A DNA stretch of 64,000 nucleotides from an uncultured Candidatus Saccharibacteria bacterium. Its GTDB lineage: Bacteria > Patescibacteriota > Minisyncoccia > Ryanbacterales > 2-02-FULL-48-12. Below are positions 12,520-58,418 of the stretch, piece after piece. The number at the start of each line of letters is the position of its first letter. The first letter of the stretch is position 1. The translations under genes and the position numbers were made by a program. Location of the stretch: the NCBI GenBank assembly GCA_964479945.1, contig CAYZNS010000006.1:1107-65106 (forward strand). Reading direction: 5' to 3'. The notes under the pieces are model-generated. The model searched no databases. It saw only the letters and a list, made by a program, of their open reading frames with translations, and was not told where the DNA came from.

Positions 12520-13328
12520 TTGCCGTTTTTGTAGCTGTTCTCTTTGTTTCCATTATTGCCGAAAAACGCAATGAGCGCGTTGAGCAGTTCTTGAGATAAT
12601 GCGGTCACCTTCTCGGCCGCTATGCCATCCCGCGGATCCACCCCGGGGCAATACGGAAATACAATGCCTCCGCGCCATCCGTTTTGCTGGTCGCGAATCC
12701 GCGGCAATACCGTTTTGGTATCTATGAAACAAAATACCCCTCCGTGCCGCGGCGCAAGAACGCACCATTGGTCAACGCCGAGAGAATCAATATAACCTGT
12801 CCCGTTCTCGTACATAGCGTACCAGCCATACTTCACGACATCGCCGCGTAAGAAAAGAAGATGAAGCAAATATGTTACGAAGGCTTCTATGCGCTCCGAT
12901 AAGGCTATACGCTGCGCAACAAGAATTACAGATTTTACTTCCTCGCAAACGCTTGGCACTATAGGCAACTCAGATTCAAATCGGGTGATTTCTGTCTGCA
13001 AAAACAAACGCTTCTCTATTTTCGTTTTCTCCCAACGCCAACAATGGACTATCTTTTTTATATCCTCCGAATCATGCGGTGGCCACGGCCAGCACGGCAG
13101 TTCGATCCAATATCCTATTCCATCAAGCATTTCGGCAGTATCTGCGTTCATAAGCCAGTCCTCCAGAAAGAAATTTTTCAAAATCCAGGTTCCGTTGCTA
13201 CCATACAATACCTGTGGATAACAGACAAGTATTATTATGTAACATTTGGTATTATAGAAAGCGTATCGTCGCGCAAAAATGCGAATCCGAAAATTCCGGC
13301 ACGGCAATTCATAATAATAACAAAACAC
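12504..13328 (-). CDS. hypothetical protein (start probably internal)
   Basis: ORF only; the 3' end runs into repeat A. Confidence 0.35.
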   Translation of the reverse strand: MFCYYYELPCRNFRIRIFARRYAFYNTKCYIIILVCYPQVLYGSNGTWILKNFFLEDWLMNADTAEMLDGIGYWIELPCWPWPPHDSEDIKKIVHCWRWEKTKIEKRLFLQTEITRFESELPIVPSVCEEVKSVILVAQRIALSERIEAFVTYLLHLLFLRGDVVKYGWYAMYENGTGYIDSLGVDQWCVLAPRHGGVFCFIDTKTVLPRIRDQQNGWRGGIVFPYCPGVDPRDGIAAEKVTALSQELLNALIAFFGNNGNKENSYKNGKAPGL

Positions 13329-13398: not shown

Positions 13399-16300
13399 AT
13401 GCCCCGAAAGAAAAAAATTGTCTCCGATGCCAGCGACGCGCTGGAAATTCTGCGCGAAGCGTTTTCTCCGTACCATACAAAAAAATACGGAATGCCGCGC
13501 TTTGCGGAGCTGGGAAAGAAACCGCGCATACGACTCGTTGCCGCTAAGGAAAATGGATATGCAGGAGAAAAGGATCCCTATCTTGAAAATCCGGCTTCGG
13601 GGGCTGAAGAAAACAACAACACTCCCCCTGCGTCGGAACCGAAAGCAACTCTTGAACCATTAATCCGCAACGTGCAAGAAGGAACATTAAAACCGGAACA
13701 ACAGAAGAAAACCGTGGATAAAAAGCCATCGGGCGGCGCTTTATCGCTGGAAGATCTGAAAAAATACAACGAGATGCGGCTGGAACGGATGGAGGCCATT
13801 CCAAAACCGCCGCCGCAACCCTCTCCCGAAGAATTAAAAACAAAAATAGAAGTCGCCGCGCGCGGACGGGCAGAAATGCAACCCCCGGCTCAAGAAGCGA
13901 AGATACTATGGGAAAAAACACAGGAAGAACCGCAAAAGCAATCAGTTGAACAGTCATCCGCGCCCGTTCAACCGGACCGGCTTAAGATTATAGAAGAACA
14001 AGACGGCAGCTTTAGCCTGGAAGACGAGGAAGGCAATCTTAGAGCGGGCAGCCTTTCCAAAGCAGACGCGGAAAAGTATTCTGATCCCGATAAGATACAA
14101 GAATTGTACGACAAAACATATCTTGAAGAAGACATTGAGCGGGATATCGCGCAGCTGCACCGCCGGGCGCCGCGAGAGCAGACAACGCAAGACATGGTTG
14201 GAAAAGAACTTCTCAAGCGTTCCGGCATAAAAGACCTTACCGCCAAAGGCAAAGGGTTTCGCGTTGACATAGACAATAAACTCTACCAGCACATAGCTTC
14301 TGAAGAGGAAGCAAAACGGGTAGCGGATGTTATCAAATCGGGAAAAATGCCGGATCTGATAAAAGGAGAAGACGGCCCGTATCGTCTGCGAAATGACGAA
14401 TCTGCCGCGGAAAAAGAACGAGTGGCTGCTTTACATAAAAAAGCAGAAGATCTCCATGCGCAAAAATCCAAACTCTCGCCGGAAGATCAGAAGCGACTTT
14501 ATGACCTGACGGCCAAAATAAACGCGCAATTTGAAACGCAAAGTCAGGAAGGCCGAGTTCCTGCTACGGAAGCAACACCAATTCCTCCTGATGCTGATAA
14601 ACAAGCATTGGAAGTATTGCAAGAGATAGTATCGGAAGAGTCTCGTAAAAAACCGGAGCCGCCTATGGTGAGCCATAAAGAAACGCCGGTGAAAGTTGAA
14701 GCTGCCACGGGCGGACAAGCGGAAATAAAGGCCCCGGAAATGCCGCAAGCAGTTCCTGATCTTGGCACGCCATCGCTGGAGGAGGTGGAGAAACAGCTTT
14801 CCGAAAGCATGAAAACAAAAGTTGGCGCGCCGGAAAAAGCCGTGCCCACCGGCAGGCAGGCGCCGGAGCCGCCGCTGGCAGAGATCCCGAAACCGGAACT
14901 CAAAAAATCGGAGGCGGCAAAAGCGAAGGAGGCGAAGAATTTAAAACCGGAAGGCATCCGCTTGAGCGATTTGCCGCCGGAAGAACAGGAAAAGGCAAAA
15001 GTAGAAGCGGCAAAAGTTTCGTTTGAAGAAAAAACAAAATTACTGCTCAAAGAAATTGATTCGCCCGGCGGATGGTCAAGGGAAAAAGGGCAGGAAGTTT
15101 TAGCGCGGCAACTGGCACGAGAAAAAGGATACAGCGCCGAGGCAATTCAAAAGAGTATTGACGAACTGCGTTCGCGAGAGAAAGATATAAGCCACCGCGA
15201 ACGCCGCATGGTAGGACGGCTCGGGCTTGCCAAAAAACTCATTGAAGAAGAACTTGGCGCGACAACAAAAACGGAGGAAAAGAAAGAAGAAACCAAGCGC
15301 AGGCCTTACACAATAAATGAAACCGGCGACATTGAGCTTGAGAAAAGCGAGTACGCCGAAGTGAAAGAAACCGCCGTCGGCAAAGCATTTTCTGAAAAGT
15401 TCGGCATCACGGCGGAAGAATTGGCGCGCATGGAAGGTTTCCGCGATCTTTCAGACGGCCAGCAACTGCTTGTATTGCGCAACCTTGATCAGCTTACACG
15501 CGGGCGCATTGAAGAAGAAGCGGCTACCATTTACAAGGAAGGTACGCAACACAGTAAATTCCTGGGCAGAATATTCCGCGGCGTTACGGAAGGAATAACC
15601 GGAAAAGAATATAAAACACTTGCCGCCAAAAAACAAACGGAAGAAGCGATACGGACCGGCGGCATTGCCCTGCACGGCGCACACCTTGCATGGCTTACCA
15701 AAATGGCGAAAAATACTCCGGTAGAAGTAAAAGAAGATGGATCTCTGGAAATTAATTATATATATCCCGATACTTTTGGACCCGATGGCATACAAGTGGC
15801 AAAGGCATATAACACCGCTGCAACAAAATTTTCTACGATACCGCTTGCGTGGTCATGGGACACCGCAACAAATAAACAACAAAAAGAATTCGTAAAACTT
15901 GAAAAGCAATATCAAGAAGCGCGTGAAGCACTGGAGACATTGTTCGCTAAAGATTCCAATATAAAAGCGGCATCTCTTTTTGTGCACAATCTGGACAATG
16001 CCGTAAAAATGAATCAACTCCTCAACGCAAACCCGGAACTGGAAACTGCACTTCAACAAGTAGATTCAAAACGCACGTGGAAAGAATTTGCAAAAGGTGT
16101 TGGTAAATCACTTAGTGAAAAAGGTGCGTTTGCCGGAGCGGGTTACGTTACCCGATACGCCACCATAAGCTTGTTCGGACTAGCCGCCGCACCAGCCGCA
16201 GCTGGTGTAATAAAAGGCATCCGATCAACAATGAAAGGAGCGGAAAATTTCCGCGAGGAGAAAAAATTGCGCAGGAACAGCACTGCCCGAAAAGAAAAGG

Positions 16301-17388
16301 CGGGAATGGATAAGGAACTACTCGGTAAAAAAGATTTCGTTGACGCTGAAAATCTTAACGGAAGAATTGAGTTCCTTCTGGAAAAGATCAATACAGACCA
16401 TGTGCCAACCCGCCATGACCGCCATGTAGAACATCTGGACAAATTACTGCAATACACGCACGCAAAATTAAAAGATGGTTACATAAATTTCGGCACCAAA
16501 GACAAAAATCTGCAAAACCAATTTGAACTTCTTACAAACTTGAGTAAAGCCCAAGGATACCTTTTCATGCACCTCAATAATACAGGAGCTCAAGACAAGC
16601 AAGACAAGATGGTTGCAAAGGCTTTGGAACTTCACAAACGAAGAGTTTCCGGGGAAAAGAGAAAATATTTGGCGGTACAGTTTGGCAAAGGGGCTCTCAT
16701 AGGCGCATCATTCGCCGCAGGCGGTTGGATTACGCGCCATCTCATGGAAGAGAATGGTTTCTTCTCAAAAGCAGCAGAAGCTGCAAAGGATACCGCCGCG
16801 CCGCCCGAAAACCTGCCGCTAAAGCCGGAGATAGAACCAACACCCGTACTGCCAGCGGAAAAAGCGGCGAAAGCCCCCGCCTGGCAGCCGCTGGAAAAAC
16901 AAACGCCGCAATGGGAACCGTTGGATAATGCAGACGCGGGAACGGGCAGAAAAGGGCTGCCGGCATGGGAACCAGCGGAGAAAGCTTCGGACGCAATTTC
17001 CGCTGCGGAAAAAACAATGACGCTTTCCATTGCGGCGCGAGGGCCGGAGGGTACGCTTATTGATGAGCTTCAAAATAATGCAAAACTGGCAAAAGAATAC
17101 GGGTGGGATGGAACATCTGATATAAAAACATGGGCAGGCGGCGAAGCACACCGTATGTGGCTGGAACATGCGCATAAGGCCGTGAAAAATCCCGATGTAC
17201 TTAACCAAATGAAAAAACTTGGATATCTGAAAGGCCTTTCAAAAACACAAATGGAAGATGAAGATATTGTACTCGGCCGTTACAAAGAGATGATGCTTCG
17301 CATCAAAAAAGGGTCAACTCTTTCATTTGATCCTGCAAAAAAATTACTGGATTTTTCGAAAGTACTATTTTCAAAGGCGCCTAGATAA
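13399..17388 (+). CDS. very large (1329 aa) K/E/A-rich low-complexity, probably coiled-coil hypothetical protein
   Basis: Uninterrupted 4-kb ORF with strongly biased composition. A PRKKK start is followed by long charged repeats. Confidence 0.6.
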   Translation: MPRKKKIVSDASDALEILREAFSPYHTKKYGMPRFAELGKKPRIRLVAAKENGYAGEKDPYLENPASGAEENNNTPPASEPKATLEPLIRNVQEGTLKPEQQKKTVDKKPSGGALSLEDLKKYNEMRLERMEAIPKPPPQPSPEELKTKIEVAARGRAEMQPPAQEAKILWEKTQEEPQKQSVEQSSAPVQPDRLKIIEEQDGSFSLEDEEGNLRAGSLSKADAEKYSDPDKIQELYDKTYLEEDIERDIAQLHRRAPREQTTQDMVGKELLKRSGIKDLTAKGKGFRVDIDNKLYQHIASEEEAKRVADVIKSGKMPDLIKGEDGPYRLRNDESAAEKERVAALHKKAEDLHAQKSKLSPEDQKRLYDLTAKINAQFETQSQEGRVPATEATPIPPDADKQALEVLQEIVSEESRKKPEPPMVSHKETPVKVEAATGGQAEIKAPEMPQAVPDLGTPSLEEVEKQLSESMKTKVGAPEKAVPTGRQAPEPPLAEIPKPELKKSEAAKAKEAKNLKPEGIRLSDLPPEEQEKAKVEAAKVSFEEKTKLLLKEIDSPGGWSREKGQEVLARQLAREKGYSAEAIQKSIDELRSREKDISHRERRMVGRLGLAKKLIEEELGATTKTEEKKEETKRRPYTINETGDIELEKSEYAEVKETAVGKAFSEKFGITAEELARMEGFRDLSDGQQLLVLRNLDQLTRGRIEEEAATIYKEGTQHSKFLGRIFRGVTEGITGKEYKTLAAKKQTEEAIRTGGIALHGAHLAWLTKMAKNTPVEVKEDGSLEINYIYPDTFGPDGIQVAKAYNTAATKFSTIPLAWSWDTATNKQQKEFVKLEKQYQEAREALETLFAKDSNIKAASLFVHNLDNAVKMNQLLNANPELETALQQVDSKRTWKEFAKGVGKSLSEKGAFAGAGYVTRYATISLFGLAAAPAAAGVIKGIRSTMKGAENFREEKKLRRNSTARKEKAGMDKELLGKKDFVDAENLNGRIEFLLEKINTDHVPTRHDRHVEHLDKLLQYTHAKLKDGYINFGTKDKNLQNQFELLTNLSKAQGYLFMHLNNTGAQDKQDKMVAKALELHKRRVSGEKRKYLAVQFGKGALIGASFAAGGWITRHLMEENGFFSKAAEAAKDTAAPPENLPLKPEIEPTPVLPAEKAAKAPAWQPLEKQTPQWEPLDNADAGTGRKGLPAWEPAEKASDAISAAEKTMTLSIAARGPEGTLIDELQNNAKLAKEYGWDGTSDIKTWAGGEAHRMWLEHAHKAVKNPDVLNQMKKLGYLKGLSKTQMEDEDIVLGRYKEMMLRIKKGSTLSFDPAKKLLDFSKVLFSKAPR

Positions 17389-28880: not shown

Positions 28881-29162
28881 TTATAGCCGCTTCCTCGTAT
28901 TTTTATACACCACGGACCGATGCTGAATGGCAAATATTTTTACCGTTAATTTCTCTATGCGAAAAATAACGCGATAATCTCCTACACGCAGTTTGCGGTA
29001 TCCGGCAAGAGATTTTCGCAGCGGTTTTCCATACGTCTCAGGATATATTGCAAGCTTTTTCTCAATAGCAAGCCGTATCTTCTTTTTCCATGCGGCAGGC
29101 AAGCGCAGAATATCCTCGCGCACAGCCAACGCATGATACGTTATGGAAAATTTTATTTCCAT
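28881..29162 (-). CDS. relE: RelE/ParE-family mRNA interferase toxin
   Basis: YRKLRVGDYRVIFRIEKLTVKIFAIQHRS is canonical RelE/StbE. Confidence 0.8.
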   Translation of the reverse strand: MEIKFSITYHALAVREDILRLPAAWKKKIRLAIEKKLAIYPETYGKPLRKSLAGYRKLRVGDYRVIFRIEKLTVKIFAIQHRSVVYKNTRKRL

Positions 29163-29380
29163 GCGTTTTTATGCGGTATAAATGTAGCGCCGCGCGTATC
29201 GCGCATACCCGCAACGGCATCCCAAACCTGATCTTCTTCCAGTTCAATAGCCTCTTGCAAAAGTTCCGTTATTTTAGTAGCTTGCGGCGTCTTGTCCCGT
29301 ACGGCAAGCCGCGCCACCGCTTCTTCCAAAGCAGGGGAAAGACTGATATTAAGGCGTTTTTTTGTGGTGGGCATATGCAT
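29153..29380 (-). CDS. relB: ribbon-helix-helix antitoxin paired with relE (10-nt overlap)
   Basis: Small ORF upstream and overlapping the toxin. NISLSPALEEAVARLA is an RHH strand-helix. Confidence 0.6.
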   Translation of the reverse strand: MHMPTTKKRLNISLSPALEEAVARLAVRDKTPQATKITELLQEAIELEEDQVWDAVAGMRDTRGATFIPHKNAWK

Positions 29381-29501
29381 AGTGTATCAAAAGTGTATCA
29401 CACTTGTCAAATACAAAAAAGGGCAGAAATTCTGCCCCGACAGCATCATGCTTACGCAAGCTGCAATGTGCCGACGCGCTGGCGGAACTCCCTAAAATAA
29501 A

Positions 29502-29520
29502 TAATCCCATTTTGGGATTA
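29502..29520. promoter_or_regulatory. Inverted repeat TAATCCC-N5-GGGATTA ~17 bp upstream of the C-protein gene (candidate C-box/operator)
   Basis: taatcccattttgggatta. Confidence 0.3.
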
Positions 29521-29536
29521 TACCACAATAGGATAT

Positions 29537-29773
29537 ATGATACAAACAAGCATGAGCAAATCGGTTTACTCAAAAGACTACAAAGCCATCATAGAACGCC
29601 TAAAGACGGCGCGTATTGAGGCCGATCTATCTCAACAGGCGGTGGCTGATAAACTTGGCAAACCGCAGTCTTATATTTCCAAAATTGAGTCCGGCGAAAG
29701 ACGGCTTGATGTGGCAGAGATGAAAAAATTTGCAGCGATTTACAACAAACCAGCTGACTATTTTTTGAAATAA
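29537..29773 (+). CDS. XRE-family HTH protein; likely controller (C) protein of the restriction-modification module
   Basis: LSQQAVADKLGKPQSYISKIESGERRLDV is an HTH_3 motif. The stop is 1 nt before the start of the downstream nuclease gene. Confidence 0.7.
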   Translation: MIQTSMSKSVYSKDYKAIIERLKTARIEADLSQQAVADKLGKPQSYISKIESGERRLDVAEMKKFAAIYNKPADYFLK

Positions 29774-29774
29774 T

Positions 29775-30386
29775 ATGTTCGATAAATTTATAAAATTCTA
29801 CGAGCGAACAATACGAAAAATGTGGCACATTCGTGCCGGCGGCACTTTACGTTCGCTGAAAGGCACGCTCGTTGAGACGATGGCCGAGGAGATGGTTTTA
29901 CTCGCATGGAAAAATATCGGCGGCAAATCTTCGCGCATCAAAATCAACAAAACAAAATATCCTATCAGTGATGGAAGGGGAAATGTTTATAAGCTGTCCC
30001 AAGATAAACAGGTTTATATTGATGATGAATTTGTGCTGTCAATCGAGTGTAAGGCATATGCAGAGGTCGCGATGTATAAACGTATATTAGTTGATGCCTT
30101 TTTGCTCAAAAAGCATTTTCCAAAACTCAAATTCTGCCTTTTCCAATTAGAAAGTATGCTTGGCGGTGATTACTCCATTGCCGTTGATCATCCGAACGAA
30201 AGCCCATCGGTCAAAGTTCTTGAGCATCATTTTCCAAATCTCGACATTGAGATCATCACTATGCTGGATGGAGAACGAAACATCAAAGGGGAAATACATA
30301 AAAAGCAGTTTTATAAACCACTTCGTCCCGAAAGATTAGACCACGCAATCAAATACTTTGAGCGCGCATTAAAAGAGCATCTCTAA
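29775..30386 (+). CDS. putative type II restriction endonuclease (PD-(D/E)xK fold)
   Basis: YIDDEFVLSIECKAY gives D...E-C-K. The ORF is translationally coupled to the C gene and convergent with the MTase (4-nt stop overlap). AT-rich. Confidence 0.5.
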   Translation: MFDKFIKFYERTIRKMWHIRAGGTLRSLKGTLVETMAEEMVLLAWKNIGGKSSRIKINKTKYPISDGRGNVYKLSQDKQVYIDDEFVLSIECKAYAEVAMYKRILVDAFLLKKHFPKLKFCLFQLESMLGGDYSIAVDHPNESPSVKVLEHHFPNLDIEIITMLDGERNIKGEIHKKQFYKPLRPERLDHAIKYFERALKEHL

Positions 30387-31885
30387 AATAACTTCGCCGG
30401 AATTTCCTTTATTCGTTTCTCGGAGATTTTGCAGTATTTTGGTGAGATATCTATTCCGATATATTTTCTGCCTGTTTCTGCGGCGCAAAGTGTGGTTGTT
30501 CCCGCGCCGTTGAACGGATCAAGTACAATATCGTCTTGATAGCTAAAGAGTTTCATTAGTCGCGTTGCTAACTCCTTTGGAAACATTGCAGGATGATCAT
30601 ATTCTTTCATGTTTCGTTCGGGAGCGATGGACCATTTTGCATAAACCCATTTCTTGAATTCGTCGCCTGTTATATCGGCTTTTGACGAGTCGCCAGCCTT
30701 TTTGTGTGTATCTTTTGAGAAAACTTCAACAAATTCCCATGTGTATTTTAGATATGGCATACTAGGGCTTTTCCAACTGCCCCATGCAGTATACTTGCAG
30801 TTATAGTTATTTTTCTCCCACAAAATTTCTCCCTTCCAGATCAACCCATGATTAAGTAGTTGTTTTGACATCAAATGATGTGTCGGAATGTAATCTGAAA
30901 ACAACGGCTGCACGTTAAGGCAGAGCCGCCCTCCGGGTTTTAGAATGCGCGCGCACTCTTTCCAAATTGCGTCTATCTTCTTAAAATACTCGTCCCAGTG
31001 AATCGCGTCATTTTTCTCATCGTCTTTATATTCTAGGCCGAAATTATACGGTGGAGATGTAATGATAATATCAATCGAACCAGTTGGGATTTTACGCAAA
31101 ACTTCTTCACTGTCGCCACATATAATTTTGTCTGTAAACTTCTCAATGCCATTTGCTTGTGTAACCGCAAAAGCTTCTTTTTGAAATTTTGTGCCGCCCC
31201 GTGCTCTTTCTTTCGCCTCTCTATTTTTGACTTTTCTTTCTCGATTAAGAAGTTTTGCGTCTGGATAAATTTCTACTGGAGACATAAAACCGCCATCACG
31301 AATAACATCAAGCACTATGCCCTGAATTGAAACATCCCGCCCATTTCTAAAAATAAGTGGCTCCATAGTTTTGTTTGCCGGCTGTAAGCGGATATACTCC
31401 CTCTCTTTGTAAAATTTCTTTAAGGTTGCTTCGTGATTGTCGATGAGAGCTACTACCTTTTGTCCGTTCTCGGCTGTTTCCTGCTGACGCACCAAAACTA
31501 TATCGCCATCATTTATATTTTCATCAACCATGCTACTGCCGACTACACGGAGAGCATAAACTTCTGATGAAGAAGGGATTTTACTTTTTGGGACAGCGAT
31601 CATTTCCTTGTCTTGTATTGCTTCGATTGGTTGTCCGGCGGCAATAGTCCCCAAAAGAGGAATTTTTACCATTGTTTCACGACCAAATGCTTCAATAGAG
31701 CGCGGTTTATTTTCTTCTTTAGACAAAAGTCCTAAATCGCGGAGTTTTGAGACATGAAAATGAGCCGTAGAAACGGATGAGAGTTTTAATTTCTTGCGTA
31801 TCTCGTCAAGAGAGGGAGCGTATCCTTTGCGCCCCTGATAATCGGTTATGAAATCGAGAGCTTGTTTTTGCCTTTTTGTTACCAT
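30383..31885 (-). CDS. Fusion protein: complete LexA-type repressor (wHTH + Ala-Gly site + S24 peptidase Ser/Lys dyad) joined to an N4/N6 DNA methyltransferase
   Basis: N-terminal LexA DNA-binding domain at aa 1-65. Cleavage site LLGTIAAGQPIEA with A83-G84. Peptidase motifs VVGSSMVDENINDGDIVLV (Ser118) and EATLKKF (Lys156). MTase motif IV IIITSPPY. MTase motif I VLDPFNGAGTTT, at the C-terminus. Confidence 0.8.
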   Translation of the reverse strand: MVTKRQKQALDFITDYQGRKGYAPSLDEIRKKLKLSSVSTAHFHVSKLRDLGLLSKEENKPRSIEAFGRETMVKIPLLGTIAAGQPIEAIQDKEMIAVPKSKIPSSSEVYALRVVGSSMVDENINDGDIVLVRQQETAENGQKVVALIDNHEATLKKFYKEREYIRLQPANKTMEPLIFRNGRDVSIQGIVLDVIRDGGFMSPVEIYPDAKLLNRERKVKNREAKERARGGTKFQKEAFAVTQANGIEKFTDKIICGDSEEVLRKIPTGSIDIIITSPPYNFGLEYKDDEKNDAIHWDEYFKKIDAIWKECARILKPGGRLCLNVQPLFSDYIPTHHLMSKQLLNHGLIWKGEILWEKNNYNCKYTAWGSWKSPSMPYLKYTWEFVEVFSKDTHKKAGDSSKADITGDEFKKWVYAKWSIAPERNMKEYDHPAMFPKELATRLMKLFSYQDDIVLDPFNGAGTTTLCAAETGRKYIGIDISPKYCKISEKRIKEIPAKLF

Positions 31886-32071
31886 GGTTATATTATAGAA
31901 AATAAATCGAAAGTGTAAAAGGGCAAGTTATCCACATATGTTTATGTTCAGATCAAAACCAGAAGCAATTATAAAAAGATCGAAACCGTCTATTGGTTTT
32001 TGGACAAATGTAGGCGGGATAATAAAAATAAAAAACTATCCAGCCATAAGCGGAATAGTTTTATGTATGCT

Positions 32072-56650: not shown

Positions 56651-56987
56651 TTATGTGTAATACTACCAGATAACGCACAATTTATCCACACCTTTCGCTA
56701 CTCCCTTGTAAAAAAGTTCGGCTGGGTGTATAATATTGCTAGATTGCAAAGGGGGACAAATTATGTCATGCAGCGGGAACATAAGAGCAACACCAGTTGA
56801 CGCTTCACGGAAGCCCACATTATCAAAAAGTGGATTGCCGCGAGGTATCAACAATACATCCTCTTCCCGCCTTGCAAAAGGGCGGCGCTTTGTTCCGGCA
56901 CAACCGGAAAAGAGCATGCCCGTGTCTGCATTTTTTATATGAGAATGCAAATGCGGTTTTTATTTATACAAATATACAATTAACTCA

Positions 56988-58418
56988 ATGAAACAAATTT
57001 TTTATACCGGCGCTGTTCTCGCGTTACTTATATCGCTTGGTGTTACACCTTTTGCGCTTGCCGCCGAAGACGCGGTAGCGGCCGATACAGAGCATGGCGG
57101 ACCCGCCATAACCTTCCTGTGGATTGCGGTTATTTTACTGGCCGCCAAGTTCTCCGGCCTTATTGAACGCTTCGGCCAGCCATCGGTCCTGGGCGAGCTG
57201 GTTATGGGCGTTATCCTTGGTAACTTGGTGCTTCTGGGCATTACGGTATTTGAGCCCATTAAGTACGATTCCATCATACGCTTCCTAGCAGAGTTGGGCG
57301 TGGTAGTGCTTCTCTTTCAAATAGGCCTTGAATCCAACATATCCAAGATGCGCTCCGTGGGAACCAGCGCATTCTTAGTGGCTGTTGTCGGCGTGGTGGT
57401 ACCCTTTCTTTTGGGCACATATCTCGTGGGGCCCTATTTGCTCCCCGGCCTCTCGCAAAATGCGTATCTCTTTTTGGGCGCCGCGCTCACCGCTACATCG
57501 GTCGGCATTACCGCGCGCGTATTCCGCGACCTGGGTAAATTACAGGATAAGGAAGCACAGATTATTTTGGGAGCCGCCGTTATTGACGATGTGCTGGGCT
57601 TAGTTATACTTGCCGTAATATCCGCACTGGTAACGCTGGGCGCTATAACATTCGGCGCTATCGGCTTGATTGTCGCCAAAGCGGCGCTGTTTCTTGCCGC
57701 GGCCGTGTTCTTGGGGCAAATCTTTGCCGACAAAATCGGGTATCTTTTCTCATTTATCAGCACCGGAACCGGTATGAAGTTCACATTAGCGCTCTCGTTT
57801 GGCCTGGTGTTTGCGTTCTTGGCGCACATAATAGGGCTTGCTCCCATTGTGGGCGCGTTTGCGGCAGGCCTTATCTTGGACCCCGTGCACTTCCGATTCT
57901 TCCGTAATCCGCACATTGTGGACGAAATAGACGAATGCATGCATGACTGCTCGGACGCGGCATCCCGCAAGCGCGTGGGCGACGTCATCGCCGCACATGC
58001 CAGTAAGCACGTGGAAGACTTGTTGGAACCCGTAAGCATTCTGCTCGTGCCGCTCTTCTTTGTGGTAACCGGCATGGATGTAAATCTTACCGTGCTATTT
58101 AACGGACCAATTCTTCTGGTTGCTCTTGGTATCACAGCAGTTGCCTTTATCGGCAAAATATGCGCGGGGCTTGTCGCGGGCAACGGCGTCAACAAATCCC
58201 TCATTGGCTGGGGCATGGTACCACGCGGCGAAGTCGGCCTGATATTTGCAACCGTAGGCCGCTCGCTCGGCGTTGTTACGGAGGAAGTGTTTTCGGTAAT
58301 TGTCATTATGGTAATTCTTACCACGCTTCTGACGCCGCCCATCCTTACATTCCTCTTAAAACGCGGCGTGGCAAAACACGCGCAACAAGCAGAAGCGCAA
58401 TTATCGCACGCGCATTAA
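56988..58418 (+). CDS. monovalent cation:proton antiporter (Na+/H+ exchanger, CPA family)
   Basis: Signal peptide plus ~12 TM helices. Confidence 0.75.
   Translation: MKQIFYTGAVLALLISLGVTPFALAAEDAVAADTEHGGPAITFLWIAVILLAAKFSGLIERFGQPSVLGELVMGVILGNLVLLGITVFEPIKYDSIIRFLAELGVVVLLFQIGLESNISKMRSVGTSAFLVAVVGVVVPFLLGTYLVGPYLLPGLSQNAYLFLGAALTATSVGITARVFRDLGKLQDKEAQIILGAAVIDDVLGLVILAVISALVTLGAITFGAIGLIVAKAALFLAAAVFLGQIFADKIGYLFSFISTGTGMKFTLALSFGLVFAFLAHIIGLAPIVGAFAAGLILDPVHFRFFRNPHIVDEIDECMHDCSDAASRKRVGDVIAAHASKHVEDLLEPVSILLVPLFFVVTGMDVNLTVLFNGPILLVALGITAVAFIGKICAGLVAGNGVNKSLIGWGMVPRGEVGLIFATVGRSLGVVTEEVFSVIVIMVILTTLLTPPILTFLLKRGVAKHAQQAEAQLSHAH

Follow-up and report, generated by a model that had tools for sequence, protein, structure and literature searches.

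The regulation of restriction-modification (RM) systems is understood through three devices, namely C proteins, antisense RNAs and short helix-turn-helix (HTH) extensions on C5 methyltransferases. In M.SsoII, M.Ecl18kI, M.EcoRII, M.MspI and M.ScrFIA, the methyltransferase carries an N-terminal HTH and represses its own gene, and PvuII, BamHI, AhdI and Esp1396I are type II RM systems controlled by a C protein. Among type I systems, DNA damage is followed by restriction alleviation through the ClpXP-dependent loss of HsdR. Here, we describe a type II RM cassette whose methyltransferase is fused to a LexA-type repressor, in a stretch of 64,000 nucleotides (hereafter the window, 64 kb) from an uncultured Candidatus Saccharibacteria bacterium (contig CAYZNS010000006.1 of assembly GCA_964479945.1). 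On balance, we regard it as probable that the methyltransferase (M) of this cassette is made only as a LexA fusion, and that the repressor cleaves itself upon DNA damage, M rises and protection is restored. Such a LexA-methyltransferase would be a fourth device, and the first RM regulator that could receive a physiological signal (DNA damage via RecA) and respond to it irreversibly.

The open reading frame (ORF) of the fusion occupies positions 30383 to 31885 of the minus strand (stop codon at 30383-30385) and encodes 500 residues in which three domains follow one another. The first is a LexA winged-HTH (wHTH) DNA-binding domain (residues 3-62; 31700-31879, minus strand; PF01726, LexA_DNA_bind, 2.9e-12), with a recognition helix, SVSTAHFHVSKL, placed by alignment with E. 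coli LexA. The second is an S24 peptidase and dimerisation domain (residues 76-191; 31313-31660, minus strand; PF00717, Peptidase_S24, 1.3e-28; PDB 3k2z) that holds the Ser118/Lys156 dyad. The third is a beta-class N4/N6 DNA methyltransferase (residues ~206-500; 30386-31270, minus strand), recognised by PF01555 (N6_N4_Mtase, full model, residues 271-490, 5.7e-39), by the PADLOC model MTase_II (1.5e-69) and by sequence matches in the PDB (2zie, 3e-31; the N4C methyltransferase 8s9n, 1e-22; also 1boo, CcrM and M.PvuII).

The LexA part scores 179.2 bits against the NCBIfam lexA equivalog TIGR00498 (cutoff 110.95), residues 2-197 covering model positions 4-201 of 203, and the best solved relative of residues 2-196 is the LexA of T. 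maritima (PDB 3k2z, 9.6e-34). The predicted self-cleavage site, Ala83-Gly84 (codons 31634-31639, minus strand), was assigned from motif position and from the E. coli LexA alignment; it lies in LLGTIAAGQP (AAGQP from residue 82), while GSSM starts at residue 116 (S118) and TLKK at residue 154 (K156). In the alignment, A83-G84, S118 and K156 correspond to A84-G85, S119 and K156 of the E. coli protein. In the methyltransferase part, motif IV (SPPY, residue 277) precedes motif I (DPFNGAGTT, residue 456), and the SPPY motif together with the PDB matches to N4C enzymes (8s9n, 1boo) indicates that the enzyme probably produces N4-methylcytosine. An earlier note on this DNA had claimed a 500-residue ORF with a full N-terminal LexA and an in-frame beta-class methyltransferase, and had named these cleavage, dyad and catalytic positions; the Pfam domains and the TIGR00498 score bear out the architecture, and each residue stands where the note had put it. 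Judged by these matches, the fusion joins a true and complete LexA, with its wHTH, its Ala-Gly site and the Ser/Lys dyad of S24, in frame to a beta-class methyltransferase.

The junction between the two parts coincides with the natural C-terminus of LexA. Indeed, standalone methyltransferase homologues of about 300 residues start at the YPDAKLL...RERKVKNR segment, right after the LexA part. Separate translation of the methyltransferase from an internal start was considered in the alignment of relatives, where no Met is conserved at the junction; the methyltransferase is therefore not produced apart from LexA.

Among 5.8 billion proteins searched, dozens of clusters (478-507 residues, 53-91% identity), stemming from independent projects, combine these three domains. 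The LexA module alone was also scanned by alignment against one genome per species, which gave at least 495 relatives; the best 80 of these (61-96% identity to the module) were taken, and almost all are labelled as Patescibacteria (Parcubacteria/Paceibacterota and a few Saccharibacteria), a handful having other bin labels. The best-80 loci, the loci fetched earlier and the window together contain 77 complete fusions of 435-613 residues. The recovered fusions fall into at least 13 methyltransferase clusters sharing less than 40% identity, all belonging to PF01555, with SPPY, DPPY or DPPF as catalytic motif. The earlier note did not recognise a methyltransferase that carries an entire autoproteolytic repressor. 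These comparisons make it a widespread architecture of Patescibacteria, attached to at least 13 methyltransferase lineages and already held in databases under ordinary names. Two fusions occur in one genome at L008, at L017 and L062 (metagenome-assembled genome (MAG) DeMMO5_22) and at L016 and L079 (MAG SRP269290_co1_320). At L008 (523-kb contig Ga0315277_10000002; 5001-6524 and 10941-11524), the two fusions are different and lie about 4.4 kb apart; the second has 616 residues and stands beside a MwoI/SfiI-like nuclease, with a NERD-domain gene in between.

The exact protein of the window is present in public collections, where the members of its cluster go under the names 'SOS regulatory protein LexA' or 'site-specific DNA-methyltransferase'. 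In the same 90% cluster, several NCBI entries are annotated as methyltransferases of 327 residues (e.g. PJA33572.1 and MBI2099422.1), which could suggest that a frameshift, an assembly error or a mis-called ORF joins two genes. These entries are short because their annotated start is Met174, inside the S24 domain, and the contig behind PJA33572.1 (L028; PFXE01000030.1, 1259-2761) contains one continuous ORF of 500 residues. Since the same fusion recurs on many independent contigs from many projects, an artefact, which the earlier note had kept as a way to refute its claim, is refuted and has a vanishingly small probability. The reconstructions of SOS regulons and the censuses of RM systems in Patescibacteria are likely to miscount these proteins because their entries are named either 'LexA' or 'methyltransferase', some being truncated at the internal Met. 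No description of the fusion was found in the literature, a prior mention in the 2017 paper on the Patescibacteria SOS network (Sanchez-Osuna et al.) being possible.

Upstream of the fusion gene, a sigma-70-type promoter (TTTACA-16 nt-TATAAT; 31892-31919, minus strand) matches the consensus at 11 of 12 positions and is invariant across L001-L005. Only 6 nt separate the end of its -10 hexamer from the ATG, and the mRNA thus probably has no leader. The spacer is filled by a direct repeat with an 11-bp period, TTTCGAT-N4-TTTCTAT (31895-31912, minus strand), which runs into the -10 and which we consider as the putative LexA operator; a TGTGGATAAC box (31927-31936, minus strand), the reverse complement of TTATCCACA, is located just upstream of the -35. 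A LexA-box-like palindrome had been anticipated at 31886-31940. The inverted-repeat search upstream of the gene found none in this interval and only weak AT-rich pairs further upstream; a palindromic LexA box was thus rejected as operator and the direct repeat, which overlaps the promoter, is preferred.

The distribution of this repeat follows that of the fusion genes. Its sole exact match in the window is the promoter of the fusion. The related loci, 609 kb made up of short flanks, were also searched for sites in addition to the 64-kb window of the source genome, and a degenerate pattern of the repeat matched 70 times in these 609 kb, against 3.65 expected from shuffling: 64 matches lie no more than 135 nt upstream of a fusion gene, three more are at the same kind of site and the remaining three correspond roughly to the shuffled expectation. 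The heptamers differ by lineage (TTTCTAT, TTTCGGT, CTTCGGT, GCTCGGG, GTTCTAT) in an unchanged layout, and they vary together with the recognition helix, HFH being found with TC[T/G]AT, HQH with TCGGT and HEH with CTCGGG or TCGGG. Five loci (L067, L072, L073, L075 and L077) carry an inverted version of the repeat pair, placed downstream of the -10, as would be expected of a repressor site rather than of a core-promoter element. A direct-repeat LexA motif with this 11-bp period, GTTC-N7-GTTC, is established in alphaproteobacteria (PMC8565304), and it is matched exactly by L011 and L091. From these elements we strongly infer that the fusion binds the direct repeat in its own promoter and is autoregulated.

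Ala83, Gly84, Ser118 and Lys156 are invariant in all 80 of the S24-bearing members, in which the identity of the LexA module drops to 47-61%. Some relatives (P0037, P0039, P0041, P0054, P0065 and P0070; 375-417 residues) combine the LexA wHTH with the same methyltransferase and have no S24 domain. Box and repeat persist in such variants, the promoter of one of them (L011, encoding P0065; 5001-6128) keeping the box and an exact GTTC-N7-GTTC repeat. DNA targeting would therefore not need the S24 domain, and since this domain is dispensable for targeting and its catalytic residues are nevertheless invariant, functional cleavage is the best explanation for their conservation. The same variants also bear on a simpler view, in which the LexA module would only be a DNA-binding and dimerisation device that sets the methyltransferase level, like the N-terminal HTH of M.SsoII, and cleavage would have no physiological role or would not depend on RecA. 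Such a pure autoregulator agrees with the existence of wHTH-only variants having the same promoter layout, with an operator found solely at the gene's own promoter and with the fact that RecA was not seen in the window or in the related loci. Strict conservation of the Ala-Gly site, Ser and Lys across at least 13 methyltransferase lineages, at module identities down to about 50%, would be unexpected if catalysis were dispensable, and the fusion scores as a LexA equivalog; we thus consider pure autoregulation as rather unlikely.

We propose instead a damage-responsive cycle. The fusion would dimerise via its S24 domain, its wHTH would bind TTTCGAT-N4-TTTCTAT between the -35 and the -10 of its own promoter, and the transcription of M would be kept low by negative autoregulation. 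In a naive cell, M would be made at once, because no repressor is there, and R, the restriction endonuclease, would be delayed until the C protein accumulates. DNA damage, including double-strand breaks introduced by the cassette's own endonuclease at under-methylated sites, would then generate RecA filaments, and these would stimulate the self-cleavage of the S24 domain at Ala83-Gly84. The 83-residue DNA-binding domain would be lost, the promoter derepressed and more enzyme made. The earlier note had envisaged the release of a free methyltransferase domain; a cut at A83-G84 would remove the wHTH and leave S24 joined to the methyltransferase, and this S24-methyltransferase product is probably still active. 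Protection would thereby be restored, and the process would amount to restriction alleviation in a type II system, achieved at the level of transcription. The induction of SOS by self-restriction and by unbalanced RM activity is known (review PMC3874152). The coupling of M expression to DNA damage is, in our opinion, the most economical reading, in which RecA dependence and the link to SOS are presumed, and it suggests that more methyltransferase is made when the DNA of these Patescibacteria is damaged.

The fate of the cleaved fragments could also lead to the reverse outcome. In E. coli, ClpXP and Lon remove the LexA fragments, and the N-terminal fragment ends with a ...VAA degron. If the fragments of the fusion were degraded in the same way, the methyltransferase would fall, the endonuclease would persist and the damaged or phage-infected cell would be killed. 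Cleavage would indeed expose a C-terminal ...GTIAA that resembles this degron, and RM systems do behave as toxin-antitoxin-like modules (PMC3874152). The exposed IAA end would, however, belong to the wHTH fragment and not to the enzyme, no degron being indicated on the S24-methyltransferase fragment; cleavage would also derepress the promoter and so increase synthesis, and the standalone homologues of about 300 residues show that the catalytic domain works without LexA. Damage-triggered suicide is accordingly quite improbable in our estimation.

Another question is the relation of the fusion to the host LexA. Patescibacteria possess a large clade of ordinary standalone LexAs of 200-215 residues, some of which have a conserved neighbourhood (RRF, AI-2E transporter, AAA-kinase), and one of them, L077, is 66% identical to the LexA module of the window. 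The fused LexA modules are paralogues of the standalone Patescibacteria LexAs (~65% identity). Upstream of the housekeeping lexA L113 and of the standalone L077, the box of the fusion genes is found again, together with their TTTCTAT or TTTCGAT repeat; the cassette therefore probably derives from the lineage's own autoregulated lexA. The host LexA probably also recognises the M promoter, which would make M a part of the host SOS regulon.

It might then be asked whether the fusion is the genome's real lexA with an RM system grafted on, whose loss would deregulate SOS and create an addiction. The TIGR00498 threshold is passed, no other LexA is present in the window, and the fusion and housekeeping lexA genes have their operator class and upstream box in common. 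The same shared operator class argues against the fusion as master SOS regulator and for cross-talk with the host LexA. Moreover, the standalone LexAs (~203-215 residues) form a separate Patescibacteria clade with conserved synteny, some genomes contain two fusions, and the flanking genes of the fusion differ at each locus. Further operator sites that would reveal an SOS regulon of the fusion were sought and none was found in the 64 kb, nor any beyond chance in the 609 kb, both being partial genomes. A role as master regulator is thus quite improbable, slightly more so than suicide. The fusion has every sequence-level feature of LexA but is not free-standing, and no repair regulon was seen for it in the sequence covered; it is a LexA paralogue, not the LexA.

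Several points weigh against the damage-responsive cycle. We infer from sequence each of its components, namely DNA binding, self-cleavage, the RecA trigger, the activity of the cleaved product and the physiological benefit. The co-variation of helix and operator could partly reflect shared descent, promoter and module being inherited as one cassette, and for this reason the claim of binding is kept at the strength given above. The AlphaFold2 prediction of the fusion has a mean predicted local distance difference test (pLDDT) score of 60, with 32-65 in the S24 region, and was built on an alignment of just 35 sequences; this quality is too low to reveal the S24 fold or how the domains are arranged, and the S24 domain is assigned by sequence homology to 3k2z (9.6e-34). 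Neither RecA nor a second LexA was found in the window or in the 609 kb of related-locus flanks, which represent partial genomes. Finally, if the S24-methyltransferase product were degraded, the result would be the opposite of protection.

The two other genes of the cassette lie on the plus strand. The controller gene C (29552-29773; HTH_3, PF01381, 5.7e-16) encodes 73 residues, and the PADLOC model Control_protein matches its product weakly (1.4e-6 and 4.2e-4), below generic HTH models. The comparison with more than 20 homologous loci places its conserved start at ATG 29552 and not at the alternative ATG 29537. The R gene (29775-30386) encodes a type II restriction endonuclease of 203 residues, a PD-(D/E)xK enzyme with D77, E91 and K93 as catalytic residues; the acidic residue is D77 of SQD, not the DD of 'IDDEF' as previously indicated. 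R adjoins the methyltransferase gene. A sequence comparison of R with the PDB gave nothing meaningful, and its fold is of the CCGG/CCNGG family. The stop codon of C and the start codon of R are 1 base apart, and the stop codon of R overlaps that of M, the convergent ORFs overlapping by 4 nt; the locus thus corresponds to the C-protein-type type II RM module that had been recognised from the sequence. Upstream of C, a putative C-box and C/R promoter (29501-29541, plus strand) consists of a palindrome, ATAATCCCA-N3-TGGGATTAT, followed by ATACCACAATAGGATAT and a -10 TATGAT. The palindrome is a perfect 9-3-9 one (29501-29521), overlaps a -35-like hexamer and is kept upstream of C in more than 20 loci. 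An exact-match search of the window found no LexA operator repeat at the C/R promoter. Read on the minus strand, the C-box palindrome was additionally marked as a hairpin resembling a terminator, and it could end M transcripts that continue antisense through R and C.

The C-R arrangement is kept in at least 24 loci, and a close homologue of the C protein (up to 73/78 residues) with the same upstream operator-like sequence was found in at least 24 (e.g. L003, L012, L015, L016 and L025); the R proteins beside these homologues have 110-365 residues and are mutually non-homologous. L008, L009 and L010 have no C gene and retain the LexA fusion. Of the 74 loci with sufficient sequence beyond the fusion gene, 57 have a convergent ORF that adjoins or overlaps its 3' end; in 24 of these the overlap is exactly 4 nt, as in the window. 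Aligned full-length proteins are about 90% identical in the LexA part, and their methyltransferase parts may have no relation to one another. In DNA, the identity of the window to L001, L003 and L005 is 82-92% between -56 and about +590 and falls to background (40-55%) outside this segment; the ~55 bp preceding the ATG of the fusion hardly vary, and the genes flanking the fusion loci differ in every locus. The conserved promoter-LexA cassette and the conserved C end therefore form two regulatory modules that bracket a variable M-R core, and they could serve as homology arms for exchanging specificities. We extend this, as a tentative possibility rated below even, to a swappable chassis common to many type II RM systems of Patescibacteria, in which a portable promoter-LexA cassette, sensing damage via RecA and self-cleavage, and a portable C-gene cassette surround interchangeable M-R cores that differ in specificity; the conserved ends would act as homology arms, the LexA fusions, sharing their operator class with the host LexA, would constitute a damage-inducible modification regulon protecting the chromosome against self-restriction while repair proceeds, and the DnaA-box-like element described below could add an input from the replication cycle.

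The G+C content of the RM cassette is 0.39-0.41 (window 30000-32000), against about 0.49 in the flanks (parA/parB; folD/glyA), which is consistent with horizontal acquisition. Viral contigs (IMG/VR) contain only distant S24 repressors, with 32-46% identity in the S24 part and no close relative of the module; a phage origin of the cassette is therefore unsupported. In the window, the comparison with a maximal-order Markov model shows a mild depletion of CCWGG (41 observed, 77 expected), GGCC (observed/expected 0.67) and GCCGGC (0.62), which may reflect RM pressure, no site being attributable to the LexA-M system. The SPPY motif, the matches to N4C-methyltransferases and the CCGG/CCNGG-family fold of R give a hint, which is not an assignment, that the recognition site contains C.

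The TGTGGATAAC box upstream of the fusion promoter deserves a separate description, its reverse complement TTATCCACA being the classical DnaA-box consensus. The exact 9-mer occurs 3 times in the 64 kb (0.46 expected) and 74 times in the 609 kb (4.6 expected). In either orientation, it lies no more than 140 nt upstream of the start of the fusion gene in 59 of 85 loci, or in 70 of 85 when the variant TGGGGATAA is counted, and it remains unchanged when the LexA recognition helix changes. We rejected it as the primary LexA operator: it is non-palindromic, present in single copy, invariant against a varying helix and also found before unrelated genes. The two other copies of TTATCCACA in the window (13213-13221, minus strand; 56682-56690, plus strand) are about 30-40 nt upstream of -10-like hexamers, and the genes behind them are a 1329-residue low-complexity ORF (13399-17388) and an antiporter-like ORF (56988-58418). 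TTATCCACA was also noticed in the housekeeping lexA promoters of related genomes (upstream regions of L077 and L113). TTATCCACA thus resembles an infrequent site that accompanies promoters in general and serves a conserved factor. As a lead, the TGTGGATAAC box may be recognised by a conserved factor other than LexA, for which DnaA is the obvious candidate.

Other features were observed around the same promoters and in the vicinity of LexA genes. In promoters with a leader of about 40 nt (L038, L041, L043-L048, L052, L062 and others), AAAGTCAA is found 10-20 nt before the ATG; it is the inverted form of TTGACTTT, which flanks the operator, and could be a second half-site or pair in the mRNA with the upstream copy. 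In L112 (3001-4384), the cassette promoter precedes an unfused LexA of 211 residues, and a gene for an NmeDI_C-like nuclease comes immediately afterwards. L111 (2046-3609) encodes a more divergent standalone LexA beside Pycsar genes (cyclase and PycTM) and a DUF2290/UvrD-like pair. LexA-type regulators may thus be attached to other defence modules in Patescibacteria. In the window, a ParE-toxin/small antitoxin-like pair abuts the RM cassette (28881-29380, minus strand, and 29381-29402). An 11-bp tandem repeat, AGTGTATCAAA / AGTGTATCACA, overlaps the promoter of the pair (TTGACA-18-TACACT) and is probably its own operator.

The fusion would offer a testable answer to the question of how type II systems spare their host when repair or replication leaves unmodified sites, a question so far answered only for type I. 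It also concerns a group of bacteria with small genomes and a heavy reliance on RM, in which this single architecture is combined, in many species, with methyltransferases of at least 13 lineages.

Compared with the LexA SOS repressor (TIGR00498; 1JHH, 3JSO, 3K2Z), the fusion shares the complete wHTH, the Ala-Gly site, the S24 Ser/Lys dyad and the equivalog score. As for LexA, a putative operator lies in its own promoter, and its direct repeat has the 11-bp period of the alphaproteobacterial GTTC-N7-GTTC. It differs by its C-terminal DNA methyltransferase of ~300 residues, by travelling with RM cassettes in varied contexts and by an operator seen at its own promoter only. Phage and mobile-element S24 repressors (lambda CI, SetR, the IMG/VR matches) provide another parallel, that of a mobile element with its own RecA-sensitive S24 repressor, as proposed here; these repressors are free-standing and only 32-46% identical to the fusion in the S24 part.

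Compared with the SsoII type, the fusion shares an N-terminal DNA-binding domain on an RM methyltransferase and a site in the M promoter, with predicted binding and negative autoregulation. However, the methyltransferases of the SsoII type belong to the C5-cytosine class and carry a short HTH but no protease, whereas the fusion joins a whole autoproteolytic LexA to a beta-class N4/N6 enzyme. M.SsoII also controls R, whereas no operator of the fusion is present at the C/R promoter and, unlike an SsoII-type HTH, the fused regulator could be switched off irreversibly by a signal. With the C-protein systems, the locus shares a small HTH_3 controller directly upstream of R, the close coupling of both genes and a palindromic C-box over the promoter, and its CR unit is convergent with M as in Esp1396I; here, M is fused to a separate regulator of its own, which is predicted to respond to a signal, and C is optional in relatives, in which the LexA fusion persists. 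Finally, the proposed outcome is that of type I restriction alleviation, the chromosome being shielded from its own restriction enzyme when damage or repair leaves unmodified sites. Type I alleviation proceeds by proteolysis of the restriction subunit, whereas we propose for this type II system a transcriptional induction of the modification enzyme through repressor self-cleavage. The parts and the logic of an autoregulated M are therefore known, and what is new in the fusion is the proposed signal-responsive, irreversible switch together with an unusual modular evolution.

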